From NCBI GenBank assembly GCA_011915565.1, contig GCA_011915565.1_3920.1: a stretch of DNA of 64,000 bases. The stretch is one strand, 5' to 3'. Below the pieces are notes generated by a model that saw only the letters and a program-made list of their open reading frames with translations, made no database searches and was not told where the DNA came from. The DNA comes from a phage. Shown here in pieces: positions 2,492 to 48,007 of the stretch. The first letter of the stretch is position 1. Each line of letters opens with the position of its first letter. A program made the translations under genes and the position numbers.

Positions 2492-2507
2492 TCTCTAAAA
2501 GTTACTT

Positions 2508-2536
2508 TAAAGCCCTGTACTTAGTATGGGGCTTTT
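2508..2536 (+). terminator. intrinsic terminator
   Basis: AAGCCC/GGGCTT stem followed by TTTTT. Confidence 0.6.
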
Positions 2537-2553
2537 TCATATGGAGAGCCATA

Positions 2554-3594
2554 ATGGAGAAGTACACATTAACAAAGCTTCCCGATTCAGTTACACATGT
2601 CTTTATTGACTCTGACAGCATTGCCTATAAAGGTGCTTGTGTAGTTGAGAAAGCAAAGTATAAATACGTTAATAAACTCACAGCAGAAGAATCTGAACCA
2701 TTTGATAATGCGAAAGATGCTGCAAGATGGTTAGCAGACCAGAGAATCCTTGTGGAAGAGCTTGGCCTGACATTTGATGAAGATGAATGGGAAAGACAGA
2801 CTTGGAAAGAAGCTAAGAGTGAAAAAGAAGCTATCATGGCTACTCAACAGGTGCTTCAGGAATGGCTTAAGGTTGTTGGGAAAGAGAGAACTTGGGTAGG
2901 CTATTTAACAGAGAAAGGTGTGCATAAACATAAAGACGTTAAAGGTCTTGAGCACCAATATCAAGGCAACCGTAAAGATGCTGTCACACCAACACACTTA
3001 GTTGCTTGTCGTGAATACCTTCTGTCAAGACCAGAGTTTAAGCTCTTAAAGGGGGGCTTCGAAGCCGATTCAATCGTAATCGCTAAAGCTGAAAAGATGG
3101 GTAAGAAAGCTGCTCTTATGAGTATTGACAAAGACCTTCGACAAGCTGAAGGAACTTATTGTATTGATATGACTTATGAAAAGTCACCACTAATTTTTAT
3201 TGCTGACAATAATGTTGGTGATATCTGGGATTGCCCTATCAAATCAAAACCAAAAGCTGCAAAAACAGTTGGCGTAGGTTTTAAATTCTTGTGTTATCAG
3301 GCTGTTGCTGGAGATAATGCAGACAACTACTTCGGCCTAAAAGGTGCTGGTAAAGTAGCTGTGATGAATGCTTTAGAGGGTAAAGAGACCTACAAAGAGT
3401 GTCTTGACGCTATCTATGAACTTTATGCTAAAAAAGATTCTTATACCTATGTGTCATGGGATGGACAGACTGTTACCAAAACACCATTAGAGTTAATGGA
3501 ACAGCATTTCTGGATAGCATATCAAGAGAGAAATCCAAAAGACAATTTCTCTTTCAAGAAATATAATTGGGAGCCGTGTATGAATGAAGATTAA
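2554..3594 (+). CDS. hypothetical protein, possible 5'-3' exonuclease/FEN-like nuclease
   Basis: 346 aa; N-terminal VFIDSDSIAYKGA resembles the acidic metal-binding start of T7 gp6-type exonucleases; tentative. Confidence 0.55.
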   Translation: MEKYTLTKLPDSVTHVFIDSDSIAYKGACVVEKAKYKYVNKLTAEESEPFDNAKDAARWLADQRILVEELGLTFDEDEWERQTWKEAKSEKEAIMATQQVLQEWLKVVGKERTWVGYLTEKGVHKHKDVKGLEHQYQGNRKDAVTPTHLVACREYLLSRPEFKLLKGGFEADSIVIAKAEKMGKKAALMSIDKDLRQAEGTYCIDMTYEKSPLIFIADNNVGDIWDCPIKSKPKAAKTVGVGFKFLCYQAVAGDNADNYFGLKGAGKVAVMNALEGKETYKECLDAIYELYAKKDSYTYVSWDGQTVTKTPLELMEQHFWIAYQERNPKDNFSFKKYNWEPCMNED

Positions 3595-4081
3595 AGGATT
3601 TGGCAATTGCCCCACCTACGGTCATTGGGTATCTTTATGTGGGGAAGTTGACCCCACTAAACATTTTGGCTTTGTCTATTTAGTGCACTGTAAGAAGACT
3701 GGACAATATTATATCGGAAAGAAACAGCTTAACAGCGTGACAAAAAGAAAAGTTGCTGGGAAGACTCGGAAGAAGGTAGTCACTAAGGAGAGTGATTGGA
3801 TGACTTACGAGACTTCTTCTGAGTATATTAAAAAAGATATTGAGAGCTTTGGAAAAGAATTTTTTGACTTTTACATCATTCAGACCTACTACACAAAAGG
3901 TGGCCTAGTCTATGGTGAAGCAAACCTTCAACATAAATTCGATGTAATGACAAAAAGGATTGACTCGAAGCTCAGACTCTTCTACAATGCCAATATTGCA
4001 GCAATTAAGTTTATTACTAAAGAAACTTATGAAGATGCTGAAAAAAGAATCCATAAGGTAATGAAAGCAAATTGTGCTTGA
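3584..4081 (+). CDS. GIY-YIG-like nuclease domain protein
   Basis: 165 aa; FGFVYLVHCKKTGQYYIGKK matches the GIY...YIG motif spacing; could be endonuclease II-like or a small homing endonuclease. Confidence 0.5.
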   Translation: MKIKGFGNCPTYGHWVSLCGEVDPTKHFGFVYLVHCKKTGQYYIGKKQLNSVTKRKVAGKTRKKVVTKESDWMTYETSSEYIKKDIESFGKEFFDFYIIQTYYTKGGLVYGEANLQHKFDVMTKRIDSKLRLFYNANIAAIKFITKETYEDAEKRIHKVMKANCA

Positions 4082-4102
4082 TAACTATTGAGAGAGAATA
4101 AA

Positions 4103-4351
4103 ATGTTTAACAAAAGCAAAGCTGTGAATTATGTAGCAAAAGTTGACAGTAAGATTGAAGAACTTGAGCGCATTCTTGCAAATGCTAGAGAATCAATAAT
4201 TAAAGAAGTTGAAGCTGTTGAATCACAAATGCAGCACCTAATGCTTAAACGCCAAGAGCTACGTGAGCATCTAGAATATATTGAAACACGAGAGCTAAAA
4301 GTTAACAGATATTTTAAGGAGTCCGAATGTTTAACTCAAGAGAATCAGTAA
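4103..4351 (+). CDS. hypothetical protein (coiled-coil)
   Basis: Track start at 4088 is TTG; first ATG at 4103 chosen. Confidence 0.5.
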   Translation: MFNKSKAVNYVAKVDSKIEELERILANARESIIKEVEAVESQMQHLMLKRQELREHLEYIETRELKVNRYFKESECLTQENQ

Positions 4352-5082: not shown

Positions 5083-5386
5083 TAAAGAGGGTGTGGCTCA
5101 GAAGAGCCACTTCTCAAACTACAATATTTCTATGACGGTGTTTATGAATGACCCGTTACTTGAAAAGTATGGTGAGACTCCAGATACACTTCTGGATAAT
5201 GAACAAGTTTTAAAAGCAGTCCTGTACAAATACGGGATTGACATTGAGAAAGAGTATTCTTTTGAAATCTGCCAACACAGGAATACTTTTGGTAAAGTTG
5301 TGATGGCTCCACTTTTTATGGGTGTAGAAAGGACTGACTACGGTTGGTTATATCTAAAAAGAAACTTGGAGAAATACCGTGTTTAA
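5063..5386 (+). CDS. hypothetical protein
   Basis: Track start 5054 is TTG; ATG at 5063 chosen. Confidence 0.5.
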   Translation: MDSQNINKEGVAQKSHFSNYNISMTVFMNDPLLEKYGETPDTLLDNEQVLKAVLYKYGIDIEKEYSFEICQHRNTFGKVVMAPLFMGVERTDYGWLYLKRNLEKYRV

Positions 5387-5714
5387 AGCAAAGAAGTTAG
5401 ATTACGATGACATTATCTCAGGTGCTAAATTAGGTGTTGATAGTATCGGACAAGATGTTAAGCACGGGGACACAGTTATGTACTGTGATGACCGAAGAGG
5501 AAGAAGTGCAATCTTGTTTGGAAAAGTTGTATGTAAAATACGCGGTAATTATGTTGTTTCAGATATGGATGGCAACGTCGCACAAAAGCTCAAAATAATC
5601 ATGGATAGCAAGACTCCATCATGGCTCTTAAATTGTATGCACGCTTCGTCTATCACAAAAGTAAGTGATAAGTTTTACGATATGTGGCAGAATGAGCAAA
5701 TTTTCAAGATTTAA
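5379..5714 (+). CDS. hypothetical protein
   Basis: GTG start with GGAG upstream; followed by a strong terminator. Confidence 0.5.
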   Translation: MFKAKKLDYDDIISGAKLGVDSIGQDVKHGDTVMYCDDRRGRSAILFGKVVCKIRGNYVVSDMDGNVAQKLKIIMDSKTPSWLLNCMHASSITKVSDKFYDMWQNEQIFKI

Positions 5715-5719
5715 ACTAG

Positions 5720-5743
5720 GGAGCCTCTTCGGAGGCTCTTTTC
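5720..5743 (+). terminator. intrinsic terminator
   Basis: GAGCCTC-TTCG-GAGGCTC hairpin plus TTTT. Confidence 0.75.
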
Positions 5744-5760
5744 ATCTGTAGGATTAGAAA

Positions 5761-7995
5761 ATGATTAAGACAATTAAAAAATCAAATGGTACAGTAGTAA
5801 GCTTTGACCCAGAAAGACTGAATAAGTGGGCATCATGGGCAGATAAACGTGGAATTATCTGGTCAGAAGTCACTATGGAAGCTATGAAACGTGTCTATGA
5901 GGGTTGCACTACAAAAGAGATGCACCAAGCCATGATTGATGTTTGTGTTGATAAACAAACTCAAGAGTACTCAGATATGGCTGGACGACTGCTTTTGGGT
6001 ATTATCTACAAAGAAGCCTTTGGAGGCTTTACTAAGGTTCCTACGCTGATTACCTTCGTTAAAAATATGGAGAGAGCAGGACTTTGGGAGAAGATGGATT
6101 ATTCACAGGAAGAGCTTGAATACCTGCAAGGTTACATCGTGCACTCAAAAGATATCTCTTACGGTTATGCAGTCTTGAAACAGTTCAGAGACAAGTACGG
6201 TATCCGTGATATTAAAACGGGAAGACTGTTTGAGTCACCACAATTTATGTTCATGGGTATGGCTATGAAAGCCTTTGAGAAGCAACCAAAGCACCGTAGA
6301 CTGCAAGATGTTATCAAGCTGTACACTTACCTATCTGACCTGAAGATTAACGCTCCTACGCCCTATTTAAACGGGTTAAGAGCAACTAAATCAGGTTATG
6401 CGTCATGCTGTTTGATTAAGGCAAATGACACTGCTGAATCACTTGGTATTGCTGCAAAGGTTGCTTATGATATGACTACAAAGCAAGCTGGTATTGGTAT
6501 GCTTATGGAGACTCGCACTATTGGTGATGGTATCCGTCAAAATACTATTGAGCACATGGGTAAGCTACCTTATTACAAGCTTGTACGTTCATCTGTAGAG
6601 GCAAATAAACAGAAGAGCCGTGGTGGTTCAGCTAATAACTTCTACACTGCTCTAGACCCGCAGATTGAAGATTTACTGCGTTTGAAGCACCCTACAACGG
6701 TTCCTTCTAAACGTATTAATGAGATGGACTATTCATTCGGCACAAACGATTATTTCTGGCAGTGTGTTCAGTATGATACAGATTGGTTGCTATTCTCTTA
6801 CAAAGATGCACCAAAACTCTATGACATGTTCTACACAGCATCTGCTGATGAGTTTGCTATGGCAGTTGGTCATGCAGTACATTCAGGTGTTAAGCACAGA
6901 CGGGTAAAGGCTCGTGAAATTGCTAAGCTGTTTATTCAACAGCGTTATGCTACAGGTCGTGTGTATCCATTCTTCACTAACAATGTAAACACACATACAC
7001 CATTTAAAGAACCATTGAAGATGTCAAATCTTTGTATGGAAATTGTATTGCCAGTGTATGGTTTTGAGAAAGAGACAGACCTTTACAGAGATGATGCTGT
7101 GAAAGAGGATGGTGAGGTGGCTCTTTGCTTCCTAGCTAGTTTGGTTGCAGGGAGAATTTCAGAAGATGAATACGCTGACGTTGCTTATTATGCTCTTGCA
7201 ATGGTTGACTCCGTTATTGACCTTATGGATTATCCGTATCCGTCGATGCGTAACCATGTTCAGAAGCGTCGTTCTGTTGGGATTGGCCTTACAAATGTGG
7301 CTCATTACCTTGCGAAGAACTACGTGAACTACTCTTCACGAGCAGGTAAGACAAAGCTTCATGAACTTGCAGAGATGCACTCTTACTACTTACACGAAGC
7401 CTCTCTGAGACTTGCTAAAGAACGTGGTGTACCTGAGTATATGCAGTTCACTAAGTATCCTGAAGGTTGGGTTCCTCCGAAGACAGCTAACAGGAAGATT
7501 GATGAGAAGCATGATGCAAAGCTTCGTTATGATTGGGATGACTTAGCACAACGTATTAAAGAAAATGGTGGAATCCGAAACTCTGTATTAGAAGCTTACA
7601 TGCCTAATGAGAGTTCTTCACTGGCAACTAATACGACAAATGGCTTGTATCCAATTCGTGACTTTATTTTAACTAAAAAGTCTGCAACTGGTAACGTACT
7701 GTTTATTGTTCCAGATTATGAAGAGTTGAAGTATGTCTATGAAATTGCTTGGGATATTGACACCTTTGATATGATTGATTGTTATGCAATTGTTCAAAAG
7801 TTCACTGGTCAAGCTATCTCTTCAGACTTCTATGTTGACTATGCAAAGTCTAAGAAGGTATCATTGGCTCAAGCTCTGAAGTACATGATTTATGCCAACT
7901 CGGTAGGTATGAAAACCATGTACTATCTTAACAGTCGCATTGGTGTAGGTAAATCTGCACTGCAAGATGCTTATTGCGAGGGTTGTGGTGTTTAG
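5761..7995 (+). CDS. nrdA: ribonucleotide reductase class I large subunit
   Basis: 744 aa; N-terminal ATP-cone-like region (VSFDPERLNKW), active-site-like CCLIKAND, C-terminal CEGCG tail. Confidence 0.85.
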   Translation: MIKTIKKSNGTVVSFDPERLNKWASWADKRGIIWSEVTMEAMKRVYEGCTTKEMHQAMIDVCVDKQTQEYSDMAGRLLLGIIYKEAFGGFTKVPTLITFVKNMERAGLWEKMDYSQEELEYLQGYIVHSKDISYGYAVLKQFRDKYGIRDIKTGRLFESPQFMFMGMAMKAFEKQPKHRRLQDVIKLYTYLSDLKINAPTPYLNGLRATKSGYASCCLIKANDTAESLGIAAKVAYDMTTKQAGIGMLMETRTIGDGIRQNTIEHMGKLPYYKLVRSSVEANKQKSRGGSANNFYTALDPQIEDLLRLKHPTTVPSKRINEMDYSFGTNDYFWQCVQYDTDWLLFSYKDAPKLYDMFYTASADEFAMAVGHAVHSGVKHRRVKAREIAKLFIQQRYATGRVYPFFTNNVNTHTPFKEPLKMSNLCMEIVLPVYGFEKETDLYRDDAVKEDGEVALCFLASLVAGRISEDEYADVAYYALAMVDSVIDLMDYPYPSMRNHVQKRRSVGIGLTNVAHYLAKNYVNYSSRAGKTKLHELAEMHSYYLHEASLRLAKERGVPEYMQFTKYPEGWVPPKTANRKIDEKHDAKLRYDWDDLAQRIKENGGIRNSVLEAYMPNESSSLATNTTNGLYPIRDFILTKKSATGNVLFIVPDYEELKYVYEIAWDIDTFDMIDCYAIVQKFTGQAISSDFYVDYAKSKKVSLAQALKYMIYANSVGMKTMYYLNSRIGVGKSALQDAYCEGCGV

Positions 7996-18368: not shown

Positions 18369-20735
18369 ATGCGCATGGTAAATGACCACGCAGAAGTGAT
18401 TAAGAGTTCAACTTCTTTAGAGACGTCTCAAGCACAGATTACAATGACACCTGAGATGTTCAGCCTTTTGAGTTCTGGTGTGTATACCTTTAAAGAAAGG
18501 GCAGTGATTCGTGAACTGTCATGTAACGCAGTAGATGCTCAGAAAGAAGCTGGAAAAGAGAACATTCCATTCCATGTGCATTTACCTACTCGTTTTGAGC
18601 CTTACTTCGAAGTTCGTGATTTTGGAACTGGATTGACTCATGATAAAGTTATGAGTTTGTACCTAAACTATGGAGCTTCTACGAAGAATGACTCTAATGA
18701 CTACATTGGTGCAATGGGTATCGGCTCAAAGTCACCATTTGCAATTGCTCAGTCATTCACAGTATCTAGCTATGTTGACGGTGTTGTTAATAAGTACTCT
18801 GTTTATCTTGAGAATGGTATCCCTCAAGTAACTAAGCTGACAACTAACCCAACAAAAGAACCTAATGGTTTAGCTGTACGTGTGGCAGTTGCTGACCACC
18901 GTATCTCAAAGTTCTTTGAAGAAGCTGGGAATGTGTACTCATACTTCACTGTAAAACCAGAAAGTAATATTGAGTACGACGATATATTAGCAGATATGAA
19001 CGTCATTGCCCGTGAAGAAGGTGTTTATGATGCCATGATTCATAAGCAAAGCTGGCGTTCTGGCGCTAACAGAACAGAGTTTAATGTGGTGATGGGTAAC
19101 ATTGCCTACCCTGTTAACATGGAAGCATTACTTGGAGATGATTTCTTCAAAGTATTGCCAGAATTTTTCCGTAGGAGCGTAGACCTTGTAAACATCTACA
19201 TGCCTATTGGTTCAGTTGCTATTGCAGCTTCTCGTGAAGCATTGCAGATGAATGACACGACAAAAAATGTTATCATTGAGGCTACTAAAAAGATAACTGA
19301 AGCCATTACAAAGGATGTTATCAAGAAAGTTAATAGCCAACCTACACTCATGGATGCTGCACAGGCTTATGCTGAGTTACGTTTGAACTCACGAGAGATG
19401 TTTAATGCTGTGTGTCCAAAGCTAGAATGGGGAGGCGTTAAGCTTGATTCTCTGGAAGAAGAATTACTAAACATTCGTCGTGGGATTATCTACGCAGAAG
19501 ACGGCTCAGTCATTTATGAACGTGACGGCAAAGGTAATATTAAGGTTGATAGGAACGGGAACAATATCCCTAAAGTAGACTATCTTTATGACCCAGTTGC
19601 TTATGTCAAGTTCAACTCTTTAGAGAGTAAGATTCGTGCAACAGCACTTTCCTACACTCAAGAGGCAAGCATGTTCAATATCTTTGGTGCAATGCGTAAA
19701 AGCCAAATTGAACAGTTTTTGTTCGTGATTAATGACCGTCGCAATAAAAACGGTACTGAGAAGACTGTAGGACGCAATCAAATTTTGCGTGGTGCATGTC
19801 GAGACTATGCCAGTGAATCAAATCTGTTTCACAGATACAATGGCATTGTGTTTGTATTCTCGACTGAAAAAGAGTTAGATGATTTAATCAATCTACACAA
19901 ACTTGATAAAAGCTTGTTAAAGATTGTGAAGATGTCTGATAAGGAACACCACTATCAGCGCAAAGAAGCTGTAAGGGGTGTTGTAAAACTATGGAAAGCT
20001 GTTCCAGCAGAATCTGTAGCTTCATACAAAGAGGTGTCAGAAGACTTAGACACAATTGAAGAACCTCAGCTTTACATTAAGGCAGTTGGTGACACAGTTG
20101 ATGGTAGATGTTTTTGCTCATCTCCAGAAGATGTAGCTAAGTCAGTTGCTAATGTTACAGGTAAGACAGTCTATGTTTTCCGAAAAGCAAATTGGAAAAA
20201 GATACCAGAAGACTGGATTGAAGTAGATGAGCAACTCTTGAACGATAGCTTAACTGATGTTCACTGGATTAACCATAACAGATATATGACACGTATCTAT
20301 ATGAATGGTGTCCTTGACCTTACAAGCAGTTGGATTATTGCCAGAAACTTTACGTTTAATAACAGGAAGATTTCTCGCGGGTATTGTTATTCAAGGGATA
20401 CTATTAAGACAATCTTCTTAGAAGGGAATGAAGATGCTGTTGAGGCAATGTTCGGTAAGATTCAGTATGTGGCTGCACCGTTTGCATACACTTACACTAT
20501 CAGTGTTCTTCAGGATTTGAAGACATGCCTTGATAATGACACAAAACTGTACAAAAAGATTAAGAAAGCAGGTGACCGCATGGTTATCAAGCTGACAAAC
20601 TATCTTTCAAAAAGAAAACAAGAAAACTTCTTGCTTTCACACTTAGATTGGAATAAAGTATCACCTATCGAAGTGAGTAAGTTTTTAGGCTTTGATGTGA
20701 AATGTGTTCCAGAAGGTACAACAATTTACGATTAA
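18369..20735 (+). CDS. rIIA: rIIA protein (GHKL-type ATPase fold)
   Basis: Blocks align by eye with T4 rIIA: VYTFKERAVIRELSCNAVDA, FEVRDFGTGL, DYIGAMGIGSKSPF, MPIGSVAIAASREALQ. Confidence 0.85.
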   Translation: MRMVNDHAEVIKSSTSLETSQAQITMTPEMFSLLSSGVYTFKERAVIRELSCNAVDAQKEAGKENIPFHVHLPTRFEPYFEVRDFGTGLTHDKVMSLYLNYGASTKNDSNDYIGAMGIGSKSPFAIAQSFTVSSYVDGVVNKYSVYLENGIPQVTKLTTNPTKEPNGLAVRVAVADHRISKFFEEAGNVYSYFTVKPESNIEYDDILADMNVIAREEGVYDAMIHKQSWRSGANRTEFNVVMGNIAYPVNMEALLGDDFFKVLPEFFRRSVDLVNIYMPIGSVAIAASREALQMNDTTKNVIIEATKKITEAITKDVIKKVNSQPTLMDAAQAYAELRLNSREMFNAVCPKLEWGGVKLDSLEEELLNIRRGIIYAEDGSVIYERDGKGNIKVDRNGNNIPKVDYLYDPVAYVKFNSLESKIRATALSYTQEASMFNIFGAMRKSQIEQFLFVINDRRNKNGTEKTVGRNQILRGACRDYASESNLFHRYNGIVFVFSTEKELDDLINLHKLDKSLLKIVKMSDKEHHYQRKEAVRGVVKLWKAVPAESVASYKEVSEDLDTIEEPQLYIKAVGDTVDGRCFCSSPEDVAKSVANVTGKTVYVFRKANWKKIPEDWIEVDEQLLNDSLTDVHWINHNRYMTRIYMNGVLDLTSSWIIARNFTFNNRKISRGYCYSRDTIKTIFLEGNEDAVEAMFGKIQYVAAPFAYTYTISVLQDLKTCLDNDTKLYKKIKKAGDRMVIKLTNYLSKRKQENFLLSHLDWNKVSPIEVSKFLGFDVKCVPEGTTIYD

Positions 20736-20814: not shown

Positions 20815-21924
20815 ATGACTACTAAAACTAAAGCACAGATTGACGCAGAAATTTACAAACTGGTTAAAGAAGGTAAGCTGACCAAAACAGCTATTGCACA
20901 GAAATTTAACACTTCAACCCGTTCAGTTGGTCGTGCTGTAGAGCGTCATGAAGCAACCCTAAAAGGGAATAAAAAGGCAACTTCTACACCAGCTACGAAG
21001 ACTTTGAAACAAGTTGCTAAGACTTTTAAAAAGAAAGCTGGCAAACCAGTTGAAAAGGTCGTTAAAGAGACTGTACAGAAAGCTCCAGTAAATAAACTGC
21101 ACGAAGCTATGCAGAAAGATGACAAAATTGAGTACATGATTACTGGTGACTCTGTAATTATGACTTATGGTTCAGAATCTGAAATTGTTGAGTCTACTCA
21201 TCCAAACTATCAAGAGATTGTAGTTCATGTTGTGAAAGGTGAGTTCAAGAAAGCATTTGAACTGATGAACATCCGTAAGTCTATCGAAAACTTCACTCAG
21301 GGTGCTATTACAATCAAAGGTGACAAGCTATTCTACGGTGCTGTTGAGATGCGTTCTACTCTGGTTGACCGTATTCTCCACATGATGAAGACTGGTGATA
21401 AAGGTTTTGAACGACTTGTAATGTTCTTCGAAAAACTGATGGAAAACCCATCTAAAGATTCTGTAGAACAACTTTGGGGATTTGTATCTCACCTTGATGT
21501 TGAAATTGATGAAGAAGGCTACATCATTGGTTGGAAGAAAGTCTCTACTCGTGAAGGCAAGCTGGTTGACTCTCACACCTACAAAGTGCCTAATGATTTG
21601 GGTAACATTGTAGAAATGCCACGTTGGATGGTTGATAATAACCGTAACGTAACTTGCTCTCAAGGTCTTCATGTTGGTGCTTGGGATTATGTTCGTTGCT
21701 TCTCAGGTGATACAATCCTGAAGGTTCGCGTACATCCACGAGATGTTGTATCTGTTCCAACTGATTACAACGATATGAAGATGCGTTCCTCTCGTTATGA
21801 AGTTGCAGCAATCGTTGATAATCAACGTAAAGTGCTGGAAGCATGGGACGGTAAGACTGAAGCTTTGCATGTCATCGTTGGCACTGCTGGTGAACTCATC
21901 TCTCAACGTAAACGTGAAATCTAA
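20815..21924 (+). CDS. rIIB: rIIB protein
   Basis: C-terminal half aligns by eye with T4 rIIB (FEKLMENPSKDSVEQLW, CSQGLHVG, VRVHPRDVVSVPTDYNDMKMRSSRYEV). Confidence 0.85.
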   Translation: MTTKTKAQIDAEIYKLVKEGKLTKTAIAQKFNTSTRSVGRAVERHEATLKGNKKATSTPATKTLKQVAKTFKKKAGKPVEKVVKETVQKAPVNKLHEAMQKDDKIEYMITGDSVIMTYGSESEIVESTHPNYQEIVVHVVKGEFKKAFELMNIRKSIENFTQGAITIKGDKLFYGAVEMRSTLVDRILHMMKTGDKGFERLVMFFEKLMENPSKDSVEQLWGFVSHLDVEIDEEGYIIGWKKVSTREGKLVDSHTYKVPNDLGNIVEMPRWMVDNNRNVTCSQGLHVGAWDYVRCFSGDTILKVRVHPRDVVSVPTDYNDMKMRSSRYEVAAIVDNQRKVLEAWDGKTEALHVIVGTAGELISQRKREI

Positions 21925-21941
21925 TAAGTAATTTCTTAAAA

Positions 21942-21964
21942 GGCTGCTTCGGCGGCCTTTTTTA
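21942..21964 (+). terminator. intrinsic terminator
   Basis: GGCTGC-TTCG-GCGGCC hairpin plus T6. Confidence 0.7.
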
Positions 21965-22024: not shown

Positions 22025-22573
22025 ATGAAGAAATTGATTCTAGGTTTGTGCTTAATGTTTACAGCACACTTATCTTATGCAGTTGACTGCCCAGAGCTAT
22101 CAATTAGCCAAAAAGTGAACATGTTAAAAGCTTACCAGTATGGTGAGAATAACATGGGTAAAGGTTGGGGTATCACTCTAGCAGCTATAGCCTTACAAGA
22201 GTCAGAGTTAGGTCTGAAGGTAGAAAATAAAAAGACCCATGACTATGGTATCTTCCAGAATCACTTGAAGACTGTTGTAAAGCGTAACAAAATTAGTCCT
22301 AATGTTGCTAAAAAGAAACTCTTAAAAGATTTTGACTATGCTGCGAAGGAAACGCACAAAGAACTTGAGTTTTGGACAAAGGTGCATGGTCAGCCAAAGT
22401 CAAAGAAGACTTTACAAAAAGTTTTAGCATCATATAATGCTGGGTATTCGTACAGAATCCCTAAAGCTAAGAAGTATTCTCAAGATGTCTATAACAACAT
22501 GAAAGTTATTGCTCAATGTGAATTTGCAACAAACATTTCTAAGGTAAACCATGAAAAAATTAAAAAAGTCTGA
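22025..22573 (+). CDS. secreted protein with signal peptide (possible lytic-transglycosylase-like)
   Basis: MKKLILGLCLMFTAHLSYA signal peptide; ALQESELG...GIFQ loosely SLT-like; AGGAGA RBS. Confidence 0.55.
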   Translation: MKKLILGLCLMFTAHLSYAVDCPELSISQKVNMLKAYQYGENNMGKGWGITLAAIALQESELGLKVENKKTHDYGIFQNHLKTVVKRNKISPNVAKKKLLKDFDYAAKETHKELEFWTKVHGQPKSKKTLQKVLASYNAGYSYRIPKAKKYSQDVYNNMKVIAQCEFATNISKVNHEKIKKV

Positions 22574-23246
22574 TGAAGTCCTGTGCCACGCTTATGACTT
22601 ACATCCTCATGAGTTAGGTCTTGATTCCTGTGTATGGACTCCAGAACAGTGCAGAGATTTTGAAGACACTGCAAGAGAGGTTGTATGTTCACTTGAAGAG
22701 TTCCACACATCAGAACCCATTGTGAACGTTGTGGACAAAGAGACTGGACAAACTATAGGTGTAAGGCGTGATAGTTTAGTGATAGTCAATAAAGACCTTG
22801 TAGAAAAAGGTAACCTCATCTTAGCAGATATTGATGGTGTTCTTACAAATTTTAATCACGAAGATTGCTCAACGGAATTGACTGATGGGTCATTCTCACA
22901 GTACACTAATCTTCTTGATTCTGTAAGAGCAAAACCAACATATGTTTTCAACATTATTGATGCAATTGCAAATCATGCAGCAGTTGGACTCTTGACAGCA
23001 AGAGGTGAATCTCAGAGAATACCTACTGAGATGTTTTTAAGGCACAATATAGAGCATGATTACTTGCTTTTTATGCGTGGTTTTGGAACTAACTCTATAA
23101 GTGCAGAAAGTTTGAAAGTGAGGATGATTCAGTCTTGCATTCTTCCTTACTTTAATATAGTATGCTTTATAGAAGATACAGAGAAGAATGTTCAGAAGGT
23201 AAACAGAATCCTTCCACACATTAAAACCATGTTAGTTAAACATTGA
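22551..23246 (+). CDS. HAD-superfamily hydrolase-like protein
   Basis: LILADIDGVLT matches HAD motif I (DxDG); tentative. Confidence 0.5.
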   Translation: MKKLKKSDEVLCHAYDLHPHELGLDSCVWTPEQCRDFEDTAREVVCSLEEFHTSEPIVNVVDKETGQTIGVRRDSLVIVNKDLVEKGNLILADIDGVLTNFNHEDCSTELTDGSFSQYTNLLDSVRAKPTYVFNIIDAIANHAAVGLLTARGESQRIPTEMFLRHNIEHDYLLFMRGFGTNSISAESLKVRMIQSCILPYFNIVCFIEDTEKNVQKVNRILPHIKTMLVKH

Positions 23247-23257
23247 GAGAAGAACTT

Positions 23258-23722
23258 ATGAACAATATCATTACGGTAGCACTGGACGATACGGCAAACA
23301 AATCTGAAGTAGTTCGTAAAATGATTCAAGGTAACTTTGAAGGTAAAATTTTCCGTGCTGTTAATGTAAAAGCTGATGGCAGCATTCGTGAATATCGTGC
23401 ATTGTTGAACGTTAAGAAGCACGTAAAAGGTGTTGGTTCAACGACTGCACACAAAGAAAACCTGATGACTATCTATGATATGGGTAAGGCTTCAGAGTTA
23501 GGTGCTGAAGGTATCGTTAAAGAAGGTGCTCCGTATCGCTCTTTCAATCTGGAAACTACCCTTATGCTTTCCTTTACAAGTGGTTCCAAAACAATCACTT
23601 ATCTCTTTACTGATGCTGCAACGGTATCTGCTATTAAGGATAGCACTGTCAAAGCTGGCGTAGTTGCTGCTGCAAAAGCTTCTTCGATGGCTGCAAATAT
23701 CCTTGCTAAAGTCCTCGGTTAA
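23258..23722 (+). CDS. hypothetical protein
   Basis: Track start 23243 is TTG; ATG at 23258 chosen; followed by terminator. Confidence 0.5.
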   Translation: MNNIITVALDDTANKSEVVRKMIQGNFEGKIFRAVNVKADGSIREYRALLNVKKHVKGVGSTTAHKENLMTIYDMGKASELGAEGIVKEGAPYRSFNLETTLMLSFTSGSKTITYLFTDAATVSAIKDSTVKAGVVAAAKASSMAANILAKVLG

Positions 23723-23733
23723 GGTTAAGATAC

Positions 23734-23756
23734 AGGCTCCTTCGGGAGCCTTTTTC
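23734..23756 (+). terminator. intrinsic terminator
   Basis: GGCTCC-TTCG-GGAGCC plus TTTTT. Confidence 0.75.
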
Positions 23757-23774
23757 ATTTCAGGAGATTGTTAA

Positions 23775-24122
23775 ATGACATTTAAAGAGTTCTGTCAAGC
23801 TACTTTCATAGTTGTTTTCTTAGTTGGGGCAGGTGTCTGGGGAGGATACTCTTACAGAGACTACCAAGTTGCTGAAACTGAGCTAAACAATGAGAAGCTG
23901 ATAAGTGTTGCTAAAGATGCTTATCAGGAAGGATTAGCTACACTGAGCACCAATTACAAAAATGATTTGAAAGATGTGCTTGCTAAGAATAAGCACACAA
24001 AAGAGGTACTAACGTATGAAAAAACTAAGCCAGAGTTTTATAATGTTTGTGTTACTGATAATTATGTCAGGGTGTTCAACGAACAAAGTGAACAGTACAT
24101 TCAAAAACTCCCAAGTAAGTGA
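23775..24122 (+). CDS. membrane protein with N-terminal TM helix (candidate i-spanin-like)
   Basis: 115 aa; FIVVFLVGAGVWGGYSY helix then polar domain; AGGAGA RBS; 3' end overlaps a lipoprotein ORF. Confidence 0.5.
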   Translation: MTFKEFCQATFIVVFLVGAGVWGGYSYRDYQVAETELNNEKLISVAKDAYQEGLATLSTNYKNDLKDVLAKNKHTKEVLTYEKTKPEFYNVCVTDNYVRVFNEQSEQYIQKLPSK

Positions 24123-24285
24123 GGGTGACAAGTACACTCAAGAAGAATCACGGTATATCATCAAAGGTAACACAGGCAGTGATGTAGCAGCAGCACTTGA
24201 GTTCTACCGTGACGGCTTTTACCAGTGTACAATTAAAGCTAATAACCTTATTGACATGATTTTATTAGGAAATAAACAGCAATGA
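24016..24285 (+). CDS. lipoprotein (candidate o-spanin-like)
   Basis: 89 aa; signal peptide with lipobox-like IMSGC; starts inside the 3' end of the preceding TM-protein gene in another frame. Confidence 0.4.
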   Translation: MKKLSQSFIMFVLLIIMSGCSTNKVNSTFKNSQVSEGDKYTQEESRYIIKGNTGSDVAAALEFYRDGFYQCTIKANNLIDMILLGNKQQ

Positions 24286-25573: not shown

Positions 25574-26359
25574 ATGGGTATTGTAAAAATAATTAATGGT
25601 GATATCTTTGCCGCATTTGATAAAGGTAAGTTTGACATCATCGGTCACGGTTGCAACTGTATGAACTTAATGGGTGCAGGTATCGCTGACAAGATTTCTA
25701 AACTTTACCCAAAAGCGTATGAGACCGATACAGAAGTTTATCTGTATGCAGGTGGTATAGGTCACAAACCCTGTGAAAATTTACTAGGTAATTTCTCTGT
25801 AGCACGTTTAAAACAAGGTCGTATAGCTAATCTTTACACTCAGCTTAAGACTGGTAAAGATGCCCGATACAGTGCTTTAGAGTCATCTTTGAAACAGCTT
25901 AACAGATACTGTGAAGTTAATCAGTTGAAGAAAGTTGGGTTACCTATGATTGGTGCAGGTATCGGTGGACTTGACCCTCAAGCCGTTACCGTTATCATTA
26001 ATCAGGTGATGAAGAGTGTAGATGTGTATCTGTATGTCTACGAAGGAGAGATGTACCACAAGTTACGCTCAGGTTGGAATAACTACTGCGAACCAGAATA
26101 CTTTGCAGGTGTAGTAACGTTCACAGACAATGCAGTTACCCTCTTCAGACGAAGAAAAGGTAAGATACATCAAAGTAACCCTCCGGTTGAAAAGATGTCT
26201 CTAAGTAACGCTCTAGTTACCCACCTGTCGAAGAGCAATCACAGAATTGCAGTAACATTTGGCAGTGATGCAGACACATATATCTATGCAAGGACTGATG
26301 AAGATATCGAGGAGATTTTCTCATCACAAGAAGTTACCTTCTTAGACGCAAAGAACTAA
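25574..26359 (+). CDS. hypothetical protein, tentatively macro-domain-like (ADP-ribose binding/processing)
   Basis: 261 aa; N-terminal FDIIGHGCNCMNLMGAGIADKI loosely resembles the macro-domain Gly-rich loop region; low certainty. Confidence 0.55.
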   Translation: MGIVKIINGDIFAAFDKGKFDIIGHGCNCMNLMGAGIADKISKLYPKAYETDTEVYLYAGGIGHKPCENLLGNFSVARLKQGRIANLYTQLKTGKDARYSALESSLKQLNRYCEVNQLKKVGLPMIGAGIGGLDPQAVTVIINQVMKSVDVYLYVYEGEMYHKLRSGWNNYCEPEYFAGVVTFTDNAVTLFRRRKGKIHQSNPPVEKMSLSNALVTHLSKSNHRIAVTFGSDADTYIYARTDEDIEEIFSSQEVTFLDAKN

Positions 26360-26390
26360 TAAACTCTGTAGAATATTCACAATAGATTAA

Positions 26391-26434
26391 GCCTTCCTTA
26401 TCTGGTAAATTTTTCAGGTAAGGAAGGCTTTTTT
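26391..26434 (+). terminator. intrinsic terminator
   Basis: 10-bp stem GCCTTCCTTA/TAAGGAAGGC followed by TTTTTT. Confidence 0.8.
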
Positions 26435-38891: not shown

Positions 38892-39356
38892 TTACTTTGG
38901 ATATACACTGTCAAGATAAATGTCAGCTTCCATTCTACGTCTGTTTTTCAGACCGTTTGAAGTGACCTTCTTACCTTTGACTGTAACCTTGTTCCACCAC
39001 TGCATAGCTTCTGCACAACCTACCTTATTACCAGCATTGTGGCGCTTGATAAATGTGGAATCCTGCATAGCTGTGATACCGATGTTGTATGTTTCACTTA
39101 CAAGTGCATCGAACTCATTCTGAGTAGTTGGAACCTTGATAGCTTTGTTCACTGCTGCAACAAACTTCTCAACATCCGCGAGAAGATACTGTTCAGCTTG
39201 TTCAGCGGTGATTTTCATTCCCATCTTAACAGGTTTTCCGTCAATACGGATTGTACCATACCCGATTGTTGGGATTCCGGCAGAGTCTTCGTAAGCCTCT
39301 AACTCCAGACCTTCGAAGAACTTAATAGCTTCTAAACCTTTTCTTGAGAGTTGCAT
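38892..39356 (-). CDS. endolysin, phage lysozyme (GH24, T4-lysozyme-like)
   Basis: 154 aa; GLEAIKFFEGLELEAYEDSAGIPTIGYGT matches the T4/lambda lysozyme catalytic N-terminal region. Confidence 0.8.
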   Translation of the reverse strand: MQLSRKGLEAIKFFEGLELEAYEDSAGIPTIGYGTIRIDGKPVKMGMKITAEQAEQYLLADVEKFVAAVNKAIKVPTTQNEFDALVSETYNIGITAMQDSTFIKRHNAGNKVGCAEAMQWWNKVTVKGKKVTSNGLKNRRRMEADIYLDSVYPK

Positions 39357-47210: not shown

Positions 47211-47453
47211 ATGCAAACATTAACAGTAGTTGAACATGAAAACTGTGAGAGTATTGAGTTTGTCAGGGTCATTGGTGTTGAACACCACATTTTCTTAAAA
47301 GTTGGATACTTATGTGACCCCGCTAGAGTAGAAAGATTTATACGTGATTGTTTTGGTGGTAGACATCTGAAGAGTGTTATTTTTGAGACAGTTTTACCAG
47401 AAGGTTTAGAAACGAATAATAACATTTACCTCCTTACGAGGATTAGACAATGA
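47211..47453 (+). CDS. hypothetical protein embedded in tRNA array
   Basis: 80 aa; AAGGTGA RBS 6 nt upstream; directly follows tRNA-Arg. Confidence 0.5.
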   Translation: MQTLTVVEHENCESIEFVRVIGVEHHIFLKVGYLCDPARVERFIRDCFGGRHLKSVIFETVLPEGLETNNNIYLLTRIRQ

Positions 47454-48007
47454 GATACTTAAAGTATGCTTCATGGATTTTCTTAGCTTTGTTAGAGCCA
47501 TTTGCAGCAATCTTAGCAGTTATCTTAGCACCTTTTGTAGTTCCATTCTACAGTGAGAAGAAAGGACACTTACCTTTCGGGTTCAGATGGATGGAGACTT
47601 ATGACAACCCAATTGATGGTGATGCAGGTCATATCAAACGATGGGCTAAGATTAGAAAGATTGGTAAGCTTGGTGTCTACATGCAGAGAGTTGGATGGCT
47701 CTGGAGAAACAAAGCTTATAACTTCTCTTACCATGTGTTAGGAAGAGATGTAAAAGACGTTACTAAGTGGAAAGGTAATATCAACGTAAGTTCTAACCCT
47801 GAAGATAATCAGACAGGTTATCTCCTAATGTGGAACAGTAATGCTTGGGGATTATTCGCTTTTATCCCATCAATTAAAATCTTTGGTAAACAATTCTACT
47901 GGAGAATTTATGTTGGATGGAAACTTAAAAGTGTTGTCCCAGAAGAAAGAGCATTCTCAAGGGAAAGAGTTATGTTGGCATTCTTTATTCATCCACTAAG
48001 AAAGTAA
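47450..48007 (+). CDS. membrane protein embedded in tRNA array
   Basis: 185 aa; N-terminal TM segment WIFLALLEPFAAILAVILAPFVVPF; start overlaps upstream stop (ATGA). Confidence 0.6.
   Translation: MRYLKYASWIFLALLEPFAAILAVILAPFVVPFYSEKKGHLPFGFRWMETYDNPIDGDAGHIKRWAKIRKIGKLGVYMQRVGWLWRNKAYNFSYHVLGRDVKDVTKWKGNINVSSNPEDNQTGYLLMWNSNAWGLFAFIPSIKIFGKQFYWRIYVGWKLKSVVPEERAFSRERVMLAFFIHPLRK

Follow-up and report, generated by a model that had tools for sequence, protein, structure and literature searches.

Kongari et al. (2018; SpaninDB, PMC6139136) placed the spanins of Felix O1-like phages in one inner-membrane (i-) and one outer-membrane (o-) spanin family. Both families are named JH2, and their members are phages JH2, EC6, FO1a, FSL SP-010/-012/-107, Felix01, Moogle, Mushroom, UAB_Phi87 and wV8. 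The i-spanin family also takes in the phiEco32-like phages. In the supplement of that work Felix01 is entered as 'ovl' (overlapped), with the i-spanin gene at 5330–5678, the o-spanin gene at 5571–5841 and an overlap of 107 nucleotides (nt). Here we describe a corresponding pair of genes in a phage contig (GenBank assembly GCA_011915565.1, contig GCA_011915565.1_3920.1), of which a stretch of 64 kb was analysed. This whole stretch is called the window, and the gene pair lies at positions 23775 to 24285 within it (Table 1).

The two genes are very probably (at a rough probability of 0.93) a two-component spanin of overlapped architecture, the Felix O1-type ('JH2') equivalent of Rz/Rz1 of phage lambda. 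The open reading frames (ORFs), both membrane-targeting signals, their conservation, the selection on two frames and the near-identity to catalogued spanins are all direct observations. As such the pair is already known: it is a published and catalogued Felix O1-type spanin, and presents no new biology.

Relation to catalogued Felix O1-type spanins

The window belongs to a Felixounavirus. The region is 99.5% identical in DNA to Escherichia phage vB_EcoM-Ro111lw and 96–98% identical to numerous Felixounavirus genomes, among them UAB_Phi87 (97.5%) and HY02, and Salmonella phage SeKF_63 is collinear with the window. The gene pair has the same lengths (348 and 270 nt), the same 107-nt overlap and the same +1 frame as p014/p015 of Felix O1 and the JH2 families. 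The ribosome-binding site (RBS) string given for the Felix01 i-spanin in the SpaninDB supplement, tttttcatttcAGGAGattgttaa, is also the same in the window. JH2-type relatives share the gene context, which is polynucleotide kinase (PNK), a hypothetical gene, i-spanin and o-spanin, and no structural difference from the window was seen.

SpaninDB families are defined by at least 40% identity over at least 40% of the length, and both proteins fall within the JH2 families by this threshold. The o-spanin is 97.8% identical over 100% of its length to its counterparts in Felix O1, FO1a and Mushroom. The i-spanin is 97–99% identical to its Felixounavirus relatives in fjerdesal, Pr103Blw and BPS17W1, which are annotated as i-spanin or Rz-like spanin, and it differs from the Felix01 i-spanin of the SpaninDB supplement by only three substitutions (I13V, Q40E and V55A), all conservative. 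It also matches phrog_1152 ('Rz-like spanin') from end to end, with E=1.7e-41, and the o-spanin has a weak match to phrog_456 ('Rz-like spanin', E=1.5e-3). The pair is annotated as i-spanin/o-spanin in the close relatives fjerdesal, Pr103Blw, BPS17W1 and Mushroom. In the Mushroom and BPS17W1 records the gene geometry is identical, and the same 270-nt ORF is labelled o-spanin.

An earlier note on this DNA, made from the letters and their ORFs, had proposed a partly overlapped i-spanin/o-spanin pair. The near-identical genes of Felix O1, FO1a, UAB_Phi87, Mushroom and Moogle, which are 'ovl' in SpaninDB, bear this out. Both ORFs were found where the note had placed them, the second in the +1 frame and starting 107 nt before the end of the first. 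The start it gave for the lipoprotein gene, 24016, is the correct one, and several GenBank records have a poorer start.

Table 1. Positions of the spanin pair, its signals and other features of the window; the last row gives positions in the numbering of relatives' loci.
Feature	Position	Strand	Remarks
i-spanin gene	23775–24122	+	ATG, 348 nt, 115 amino acids (aa); predicted short N-terminal tail, one transmembrane domain (TMD), 88-aa periplasmic domain
i-spanin Shine-Dalgarno, AGGAG	23762–23766	+	8 nt before the ATG
o-spanin gene	24016–24285	+	ATG, 270 nt, 89 aa; 70-aa mature part
o-spanin Shine-Dalgarno, AAAGAGG	24000–24006	+	9 nt before the ATG, within the i-spanin coding sequence (CDS)
o-spanin lipoprotein signal peptide (predicted)	residues 1–19, nt 24016–24072		MKKLSQSFIMFVLLIIMSG, followed by CSTNK; MKK n-region
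o-spanin lipobox, MSGC	24064–24075		Cys20 is the predicted lipidation site, Ser21 at +2
Dual-coding overlap	24016–24122	+	107 nt; i-spanin C-terminus (YEKTKPEFYNVC...) in frame 0, o-spanin signal peptide and first mature residues in frame +1
rIIA homologue	18369–20735	+	From the ORF and the annotation of the collinear SeKF_63 record; upstream of the pair, same gene block
rIIB homologue	20815–21924	+	From the ORF and the annotation of the collinear SeKF_63 record; upstream of the pair, same gene block
Secreted 182-aa protein	22025–22573	+	Cleavable-looking signal peptide (MKKLILGLCLMFTAHLSYA, followed by VD); two genes upstream of the spanins
PNK	22551–23246		Upstream of the spanin pair
Terminator-like GC hairpin (AGGCTCCTTCGGGAGCCT) and T-run	23734–23760	+	Follows the upstream 159-aa ORF and precedes the i-spanin gene; from a consensus scan
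Macro-domain protein (phosphatase)	25574–26359		Downstream of the spanin pair
Endolysin (soluble lysozyme, 154 aa)	38892–39356	-	14.6 kb from the spanin pair; functional partner
Putative holin (185 aa, one N-terminal TMD)	47450–48007	+	Among tRNA genes
Truncated or hypothetical o-spanin CDS in relatives	L001 2565–2786; L002 2564–2785; L004 24088–24285; L006 905–1111; L008 914–1111		

The i-spanin is small, and its one N-terminal TMD is followed by a C-terminal domain, as is usual for i-spanins; it would be oriented N-in/C-out. The TMD is a single hydrophobic stretch, FCQATFIVVFLVGAGVWGG, at residues about 6–27 (nt 23790–23855), in agreement with the one N-terminal helix of the earlier note. 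Its Kyte-Doolittle maxima are 1.73 over 19 residues and 2.88 over 11 residues. The C-terminal 88 residues are 31% charged and contain a lone cysteine, C92. Alignments of both proteins were made across Felixounavirus, Suspvirus, Mooglevirus and the podophage Kuravirus SU10, at 28–98% identity and with nine o-spanin sequences. From Felixounavirus to SU10 the invariant features of the i-spanin are a GG after the TMD, YEKTK, F88, N90 and Cys92 (motif YEKTK..F.N.C).

The o-spanin N-terminus fits the PROSITE PS51257-type lipobox rule (MFVLLIIMSGC, Cys20, followed by Ser21), and the signal peptide with a lipobox-like IMSGC that had been read from the sequence earlier is thereby upheld. The protein has the signal peptide, lipobox and cysteine of an outer-membrane lipoprotein, and no Asp at +2. 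By the established +2 rule, Ser at this position directs Lol-dependent sorting to the outer membrane. The window has 230 six-frame ORFs of 50 aa or more; a loose lipobox pattern was found in 4 of them, and among these four the o-spanin alone has a canonical n-region, h-region and lipobox, the N-termini being judged by eye. Its mature part of 70 residues contains one further cysteine (C71). The invariant features are M1, Ser18 of the lipobox, Cys20, Ser21, Cys71 and a C-terminal LE(F/W)Y.D...C motif. In SpaninDB the o-spanin is predicted to have 20% helix and 16% strand, and LipoP/PROSITE checks are displayed in the supplement for other entries (PMC6139136).

Two reading frames in the overlap

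By the criteria of Summer 2007 and Kongari 2018, the o-spanin gene of a two-component spanin is embedded in, overlaps or directly follows the i-spanin gene, and the present pair is of the overlapped class. Selection on the two frames was analysed by a codon-position test on nine gap-free Ounavirinae copies. In the part that encodes only the i-spanin, the variable sites are distributed 18/15/50 over codon positions 1/2/3 of the i frame, and in the part that encodes only the o-spanin they are distributed 13/7/43 over those of the o frame. The overlap shows no position bias (8/6/8), and its mean pairwise difference is about half of that outside (0.063, compared to 0.139 and 0.175). It follows that the two frames are both translated and evolve under purifying selection, and that the overlap carries a double constraint.

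The most conserved segment of the i-spanin (YEKTKPEFYNVC) also encodes the o-spanin signal peptide. A stretch of 68 nt (24015–24082) has approximately 80% DNA identity to Kuravirus phages (1501–1568 of the SU10 locus, L010), and is the sole DNA-level similarity in the region. These dual-coding nucleotides encode a YEKTKPxFYNVC motif in the i-spanin and the signal peptide of the o-spanin.

It might be argued that only the 115-aa gene is real, and that the +1 ORF is a chance frame that looks like a lipoprotein because it lies in an AT-rich stretch coding for hydrophobic residues. Several GenBank records do leave the full ORF unannotated or have it begin at internal ATGs (the equivalents of 24064 or 24088), and a published comparison reports 'only the i-spanin' in one Felixounavirus, vB_Si_DR094 (PMC8300805). 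However, the 13/7/43 signature of the o frame beyond the overlap is a clear sign of coding and effectively refutes a chance frame. The ATG, lipobox and cysteine are invariant at 28–98% protein identity, and a strong AAAGAGG precedes the ATG, at a site where the Mushroom record has an annotated RBS. A tblastn search matched 313 phage records, every one of them over 80% or more of the ORF, and in the nine aligned loci the coverage takes in the signal peptide. Gene callers are moreover biased against overlapped o-spanin genes (PMC6139136). The probability that the ORF arose by chance is thus close to nil.

The annotation of the relatives differs in quality. The full 270-nt o-spanin ORF is carried by Mushroom, BPS17W1 and UAB_Phi87. 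Several other GenBank records, from Felixounavirus, Mooglevirus and Suspvirus, leave the o-spanin unnamed or hypothetical or begin it at an internal ATG (MSGC... or later), and examples are listed in Table 1. With an internal start the signal peptide is lost, so that automated detection of a lipoprotein or spanin would fail. Mis-started overlapped o-spanins are a problem described by Kongari et al. (PMC6139136), and the missing o-spanin of vB_Si_DR094 is probably the same annotation artefact.

It is worth adding that in Citrobacter phage BSwM KMM4 (OP902293.1, locus L007, 601–944) an apparent 1-nt deletion in the part coding for the TMD disrupts the i-spanin frame. The tblastn match is in two pieces in different frames, the locus is 1 nt shorter, and the o-spanin alone is annotated. 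Either a sequencing error or a true pseudogene could account for the frameshift.

Comparison with other spanins, and the proposed mechanism

Kuravirus (phiEco32-like phages SU10, NJ01, ECBP2 and KBNP1711) has homologous overlapped spanins, with 35% (i-spanin) and 29% (o-spanin) identity to the pair in the window. The Kuravirus i-spanin is in the same SpaninDB family as that of the window, whereas the o-spanins are below the 40% family threshold. The Kuravirus pair keeps the lipobox, the Ser at +2, the single cysteine per partner, and the coincidence of the YEKTKPxFYNVC motif with the signal peptide. These phages are podophages, and the neighbours of the pair are different: there is an HNH endonuclease upstream and a macro-domain protein immediately downstream. 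It may be noted that both groups have a macro-domain protein on the downstream side, adjacent to the pair in SU10 and further away in the window.

The earlier note had suggested as an alternative that the lipoprotein is a superinfection-exclusion factor. It would then be an outer-membrane lipoprotein that excludes superinfection or masks a receptor, as T5 Llp or the Cor proteins do, and its overlap with the transmembrane gene would be fortuitous. The pair does lie in an early-type block (rIIA/rIIB, PNK and the macro-domain phosphatase), away from the endolysin. The mature protein is without an Rz1-style proline-rich region, and its best PHROG has no assigned function. Nevertheless, neither a PADLOC defence model nor an exclusion family was matched, and the overlap and the conserved cysteine in each partner are kept in Ounavirinae myophages and Kuravirus podophages with differing neighbours. 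In two phage groups the lipoprotein gene has stayed with the i-spanin gene, and such lasting linkage is expected of an obligate two-subunit complex. In addition, the proven spanins of T4 are also among early genes, by pseT and away from e and t, and specialists already class the Felix O1-type genes as spanins. We therefore consider an exclusion lipoprotein to be improbable, and the suggestion was not sustained.

The spanin of T4, PseT.3/PseT.2, is a separated two-component spanin that has been validated experimentally. It resembles the pair in the window in having a type II inner-membrane protein of approximately 115 aa and an outer-membrane lipoprotein of about 90–100 aa (89 in the window), in having a structured o-spanin without a proline-rich region, and in being located among early-type genes by a polynucleotide kinase, far from endolysin and holin. 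There are also clear differences. The T4 genes overlap by 4 nt, compared to 107 nt in the window; the T4 i-spanin has no cysteine and the o-spanin two, compared to one and one. The gene order is pseT.3, pseT.2, pseT.1, pseT in T4, and PNK, unknown gene, i-spanin, o-spanin in the window, and is therefore reversed relative to PNK. BLASTP of PseT.3 and PseT.2 against the pair gave E=18 and E=0.039, the latter for the signal peptide only, and hhalign gave probabilities of 1.5% and 5.9%, which places the pair outside the T4 family.

In both phages the spanin pair is within one gene of the polynucleotide kinase (22551–24285 in the window, and 2503–4282 of the T4 locus, L013). A shared T4-type spanin module was considered as the origin of this proximity and was rejected, the proteins being unrelated in sequence. 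The synteny may be coincidental or functional.

Like the pair, Rz/Rz1 of lambda has one subunit anchored in the inner membrane and one outer-membrane lipoprotein, which is read from the same DNA in the +1 frame, and its periplasmic cysteines are close to the C-terminal interaction region. However, Rz1 is fully embedded in Rz, whereas the genes described here only overlap. Rz has two coiled-coil domains, whereas none is predicted in this i-spanin. Rz1 is 25% proline and unstructured, whereas the mature o-spanin contains no proline. Searches of the lambda families in Pfam and PHROG gave no sequence similarity, and the pair is not a member of the Rz/Rz1 family.

The lack of proline is one of several points that weigh against a spanin. 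The strongest PHROG match of the o-spanin is to family 4180, of 'unknown function' (E=1.4e-50). Neither protein has a Pfam, NCBIfam or PDB sequence match; what NCBIfam returns for the o-spanin covers the signal peptide only, far under the cut-offs. The likeness to T4 PseT.3/PseT.2 is limited to the signal peptide and TMD. AlphaFold2 single-sequence models of both proteins are of low confidence (pLDDT, the predicted local distance difference test score, of 51–52). According to Kongari et al. (PMC6139136), essentially all spanin experiments have used lambda Rz/Rz1. No published experiment on the Felix O1-type family was found, and its function is assigned by architecture and analogy. Finally, the i-spanin heptad score is reached by 43% of shuffles; this score is home-made and crude, and its outcome agrees with the Pepcoil segments of the SpaninDB supplement (Felix01 0, Mushroom 0, Moogle 1; PMC6139136).

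The earlier note would have taken the absence of a periplasmic coiled coil from the transmembrane protein as a refutation. This is too strict: the spanin assignment is not refuted, because more than 120 accepted i-spanins in the catalogue are also without a coiled-coil prediction (PMC6139136).

The same absences could be read in favour of a membrane-anchored complex that is not lytic, for example a periplasmic sensor or anchor tied to rII-type lysis timing, since the coiled-coil and proline-rich fusion motifs of the lambda type are missing and rIIA/rIIB are close by. This is very unlikely. A tailed phage that infects Gram-negative hosts with a holin and endolysin is expected to need a spanin, yet the lipobox scan described above gave no other credible lipoprotein ORF or transmembrane/lipoprotein pair in the window, and many accepted spanins have no predicted coiled coil.

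For the two-component spanin, a mechanism can be proposed by analogy with the lambda and T4 systems as described by Kongari et al. (PMC6139136), and it is from these that topology, complex formation, disulfides and lytic function are inferred. The i-spanin would insert in the inner membrane via its N-terminal helix, and its mostly helical 88-aa domain would reach into the periplasm. The low-confidence AlphaFold2 models suggest an all-helical i-spanin, and an o-spanin that has a disordered linker of approximately 33 aa and a C-terminal helix. After export the o-spanin would be lipidated on Cys20, signal peptidase II would cleave it, and the mature lipoprotein would be sorted to the outer membrane. 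The C-terminal regions of the two proteins would then bind each other across the periplasm, through the peptidoglycan mesh. Once the holin has triggered and the soluble lysozyme has removed the murein, the complexes would fuse or disrupt the outer membrane, and the progeny would be freed.

Intermolecular disulfides via C92 of the i-spanin and C71 of the o-spanin would stabilise the complex. Both cysteines are invariant and predicted to be periplasmic. At least one periplasmic cysteine is present in 507 of 528 spanin systems, and these tend to be near the C-terminal interaction site (PMC6139136). C92 of 115 and C71 of 89 residues, each at 80% of the protein length, fit this trend. Homotypic i-i and o-o bonds have been shown in lambda and T4 and are the default expectation from the literature. 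A heterotypic i-o disulfide, C92–C71, joining the subunits was considered because no coiled coil is predicted, the o-spanin lacks proline, and each subunit has exactly one invariant periplasmic cysteine near the C-terminal contact region. We think this variant improbable.

Gene neighbourhood and other lysis genes

The genes around the pair run in the order rIIA, rIIB, the secreted 182-aa protein, PNK, a 159-aa ORF, i-spanin, o-spanin, small ORFs and the macro-domain phosphatase. A terminator-like hairpin lies 24 nt 5' of the i-spanin start, and thus the spanin pair may begin its own transcription unit, or may be under read-through control. Similar GC hairpins with T-runs are present at 21938–21961 and 26389–26430, so placed that the hairpins bracket small gene blocks. 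In the consensus scan the number of terminator-like sites in the region was not above shuffle expectation, and a sigma-70 promoter scan around the pair gave nothing better than shuffles.

The 182-aa protein has a Pfam SLT transglycosylase match below threshold (19.2 bits, cut-off 21.3), and a PDB sequence search gave no match. It is labelled 'putative lysin' in fjerdesal and 'T4 RegB-like' in Mushroom, and its PHROG family, 600, is of unknown function. The protein may be an additional enzyme that is secreted and acts on murein.

The endolysin is 97.4% identical to that of SeKF_63 (tblastn) and matches phrog_7, endolysin, with E=4e-58. As the earlier note had it, the gene lies some 15 kb from the pair, on the opposite strand. 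The note had also seen no obvious holin. PHROG scans of the small membrane proteins likewise gave no holin-labelled family; yet the product of 47450–48007 is 96% identical to a Mushroom CDS annotated 'holin', and to that extent the statement needs qualification. This product belongs to PHROG 2143, of 'unknown function', and has no Pfam T-holin or NCBIfam match. The Mushroom label appears to be based on topology alone, and it is from this annotation that we list the gene as a putative holin.

With the endolysin at this distance and the holin homologue further on, the lysis genes of the window are therefore dispersed. The same has been published for Felix O1-like phages: according to the genome announcements of Moogle and Mushroom, these encode i-/o-spanins, a soluble lysozyme and a putative class III holin, and the lysis genes are scattered, without a cassette and 'T4-like', as the earlier note had supposed.

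A complete lysis-gene map of the window can thus be given, with rIIA/B at 18.4–21.9, the spanins at 23.8–24.3, the endolysin at 38.9–39.4 and the putative holin at 47.5–48.0 kb. The reading from sequence alone recovered an overlapped o-spanin that gene callers mishandle, and its value is mainly in annotation quality. Felix O1-like phages are in wide use for the biocontrol of Salmonella and E. coli, and a correct annotation of their lysis genes therefore has some applied value.

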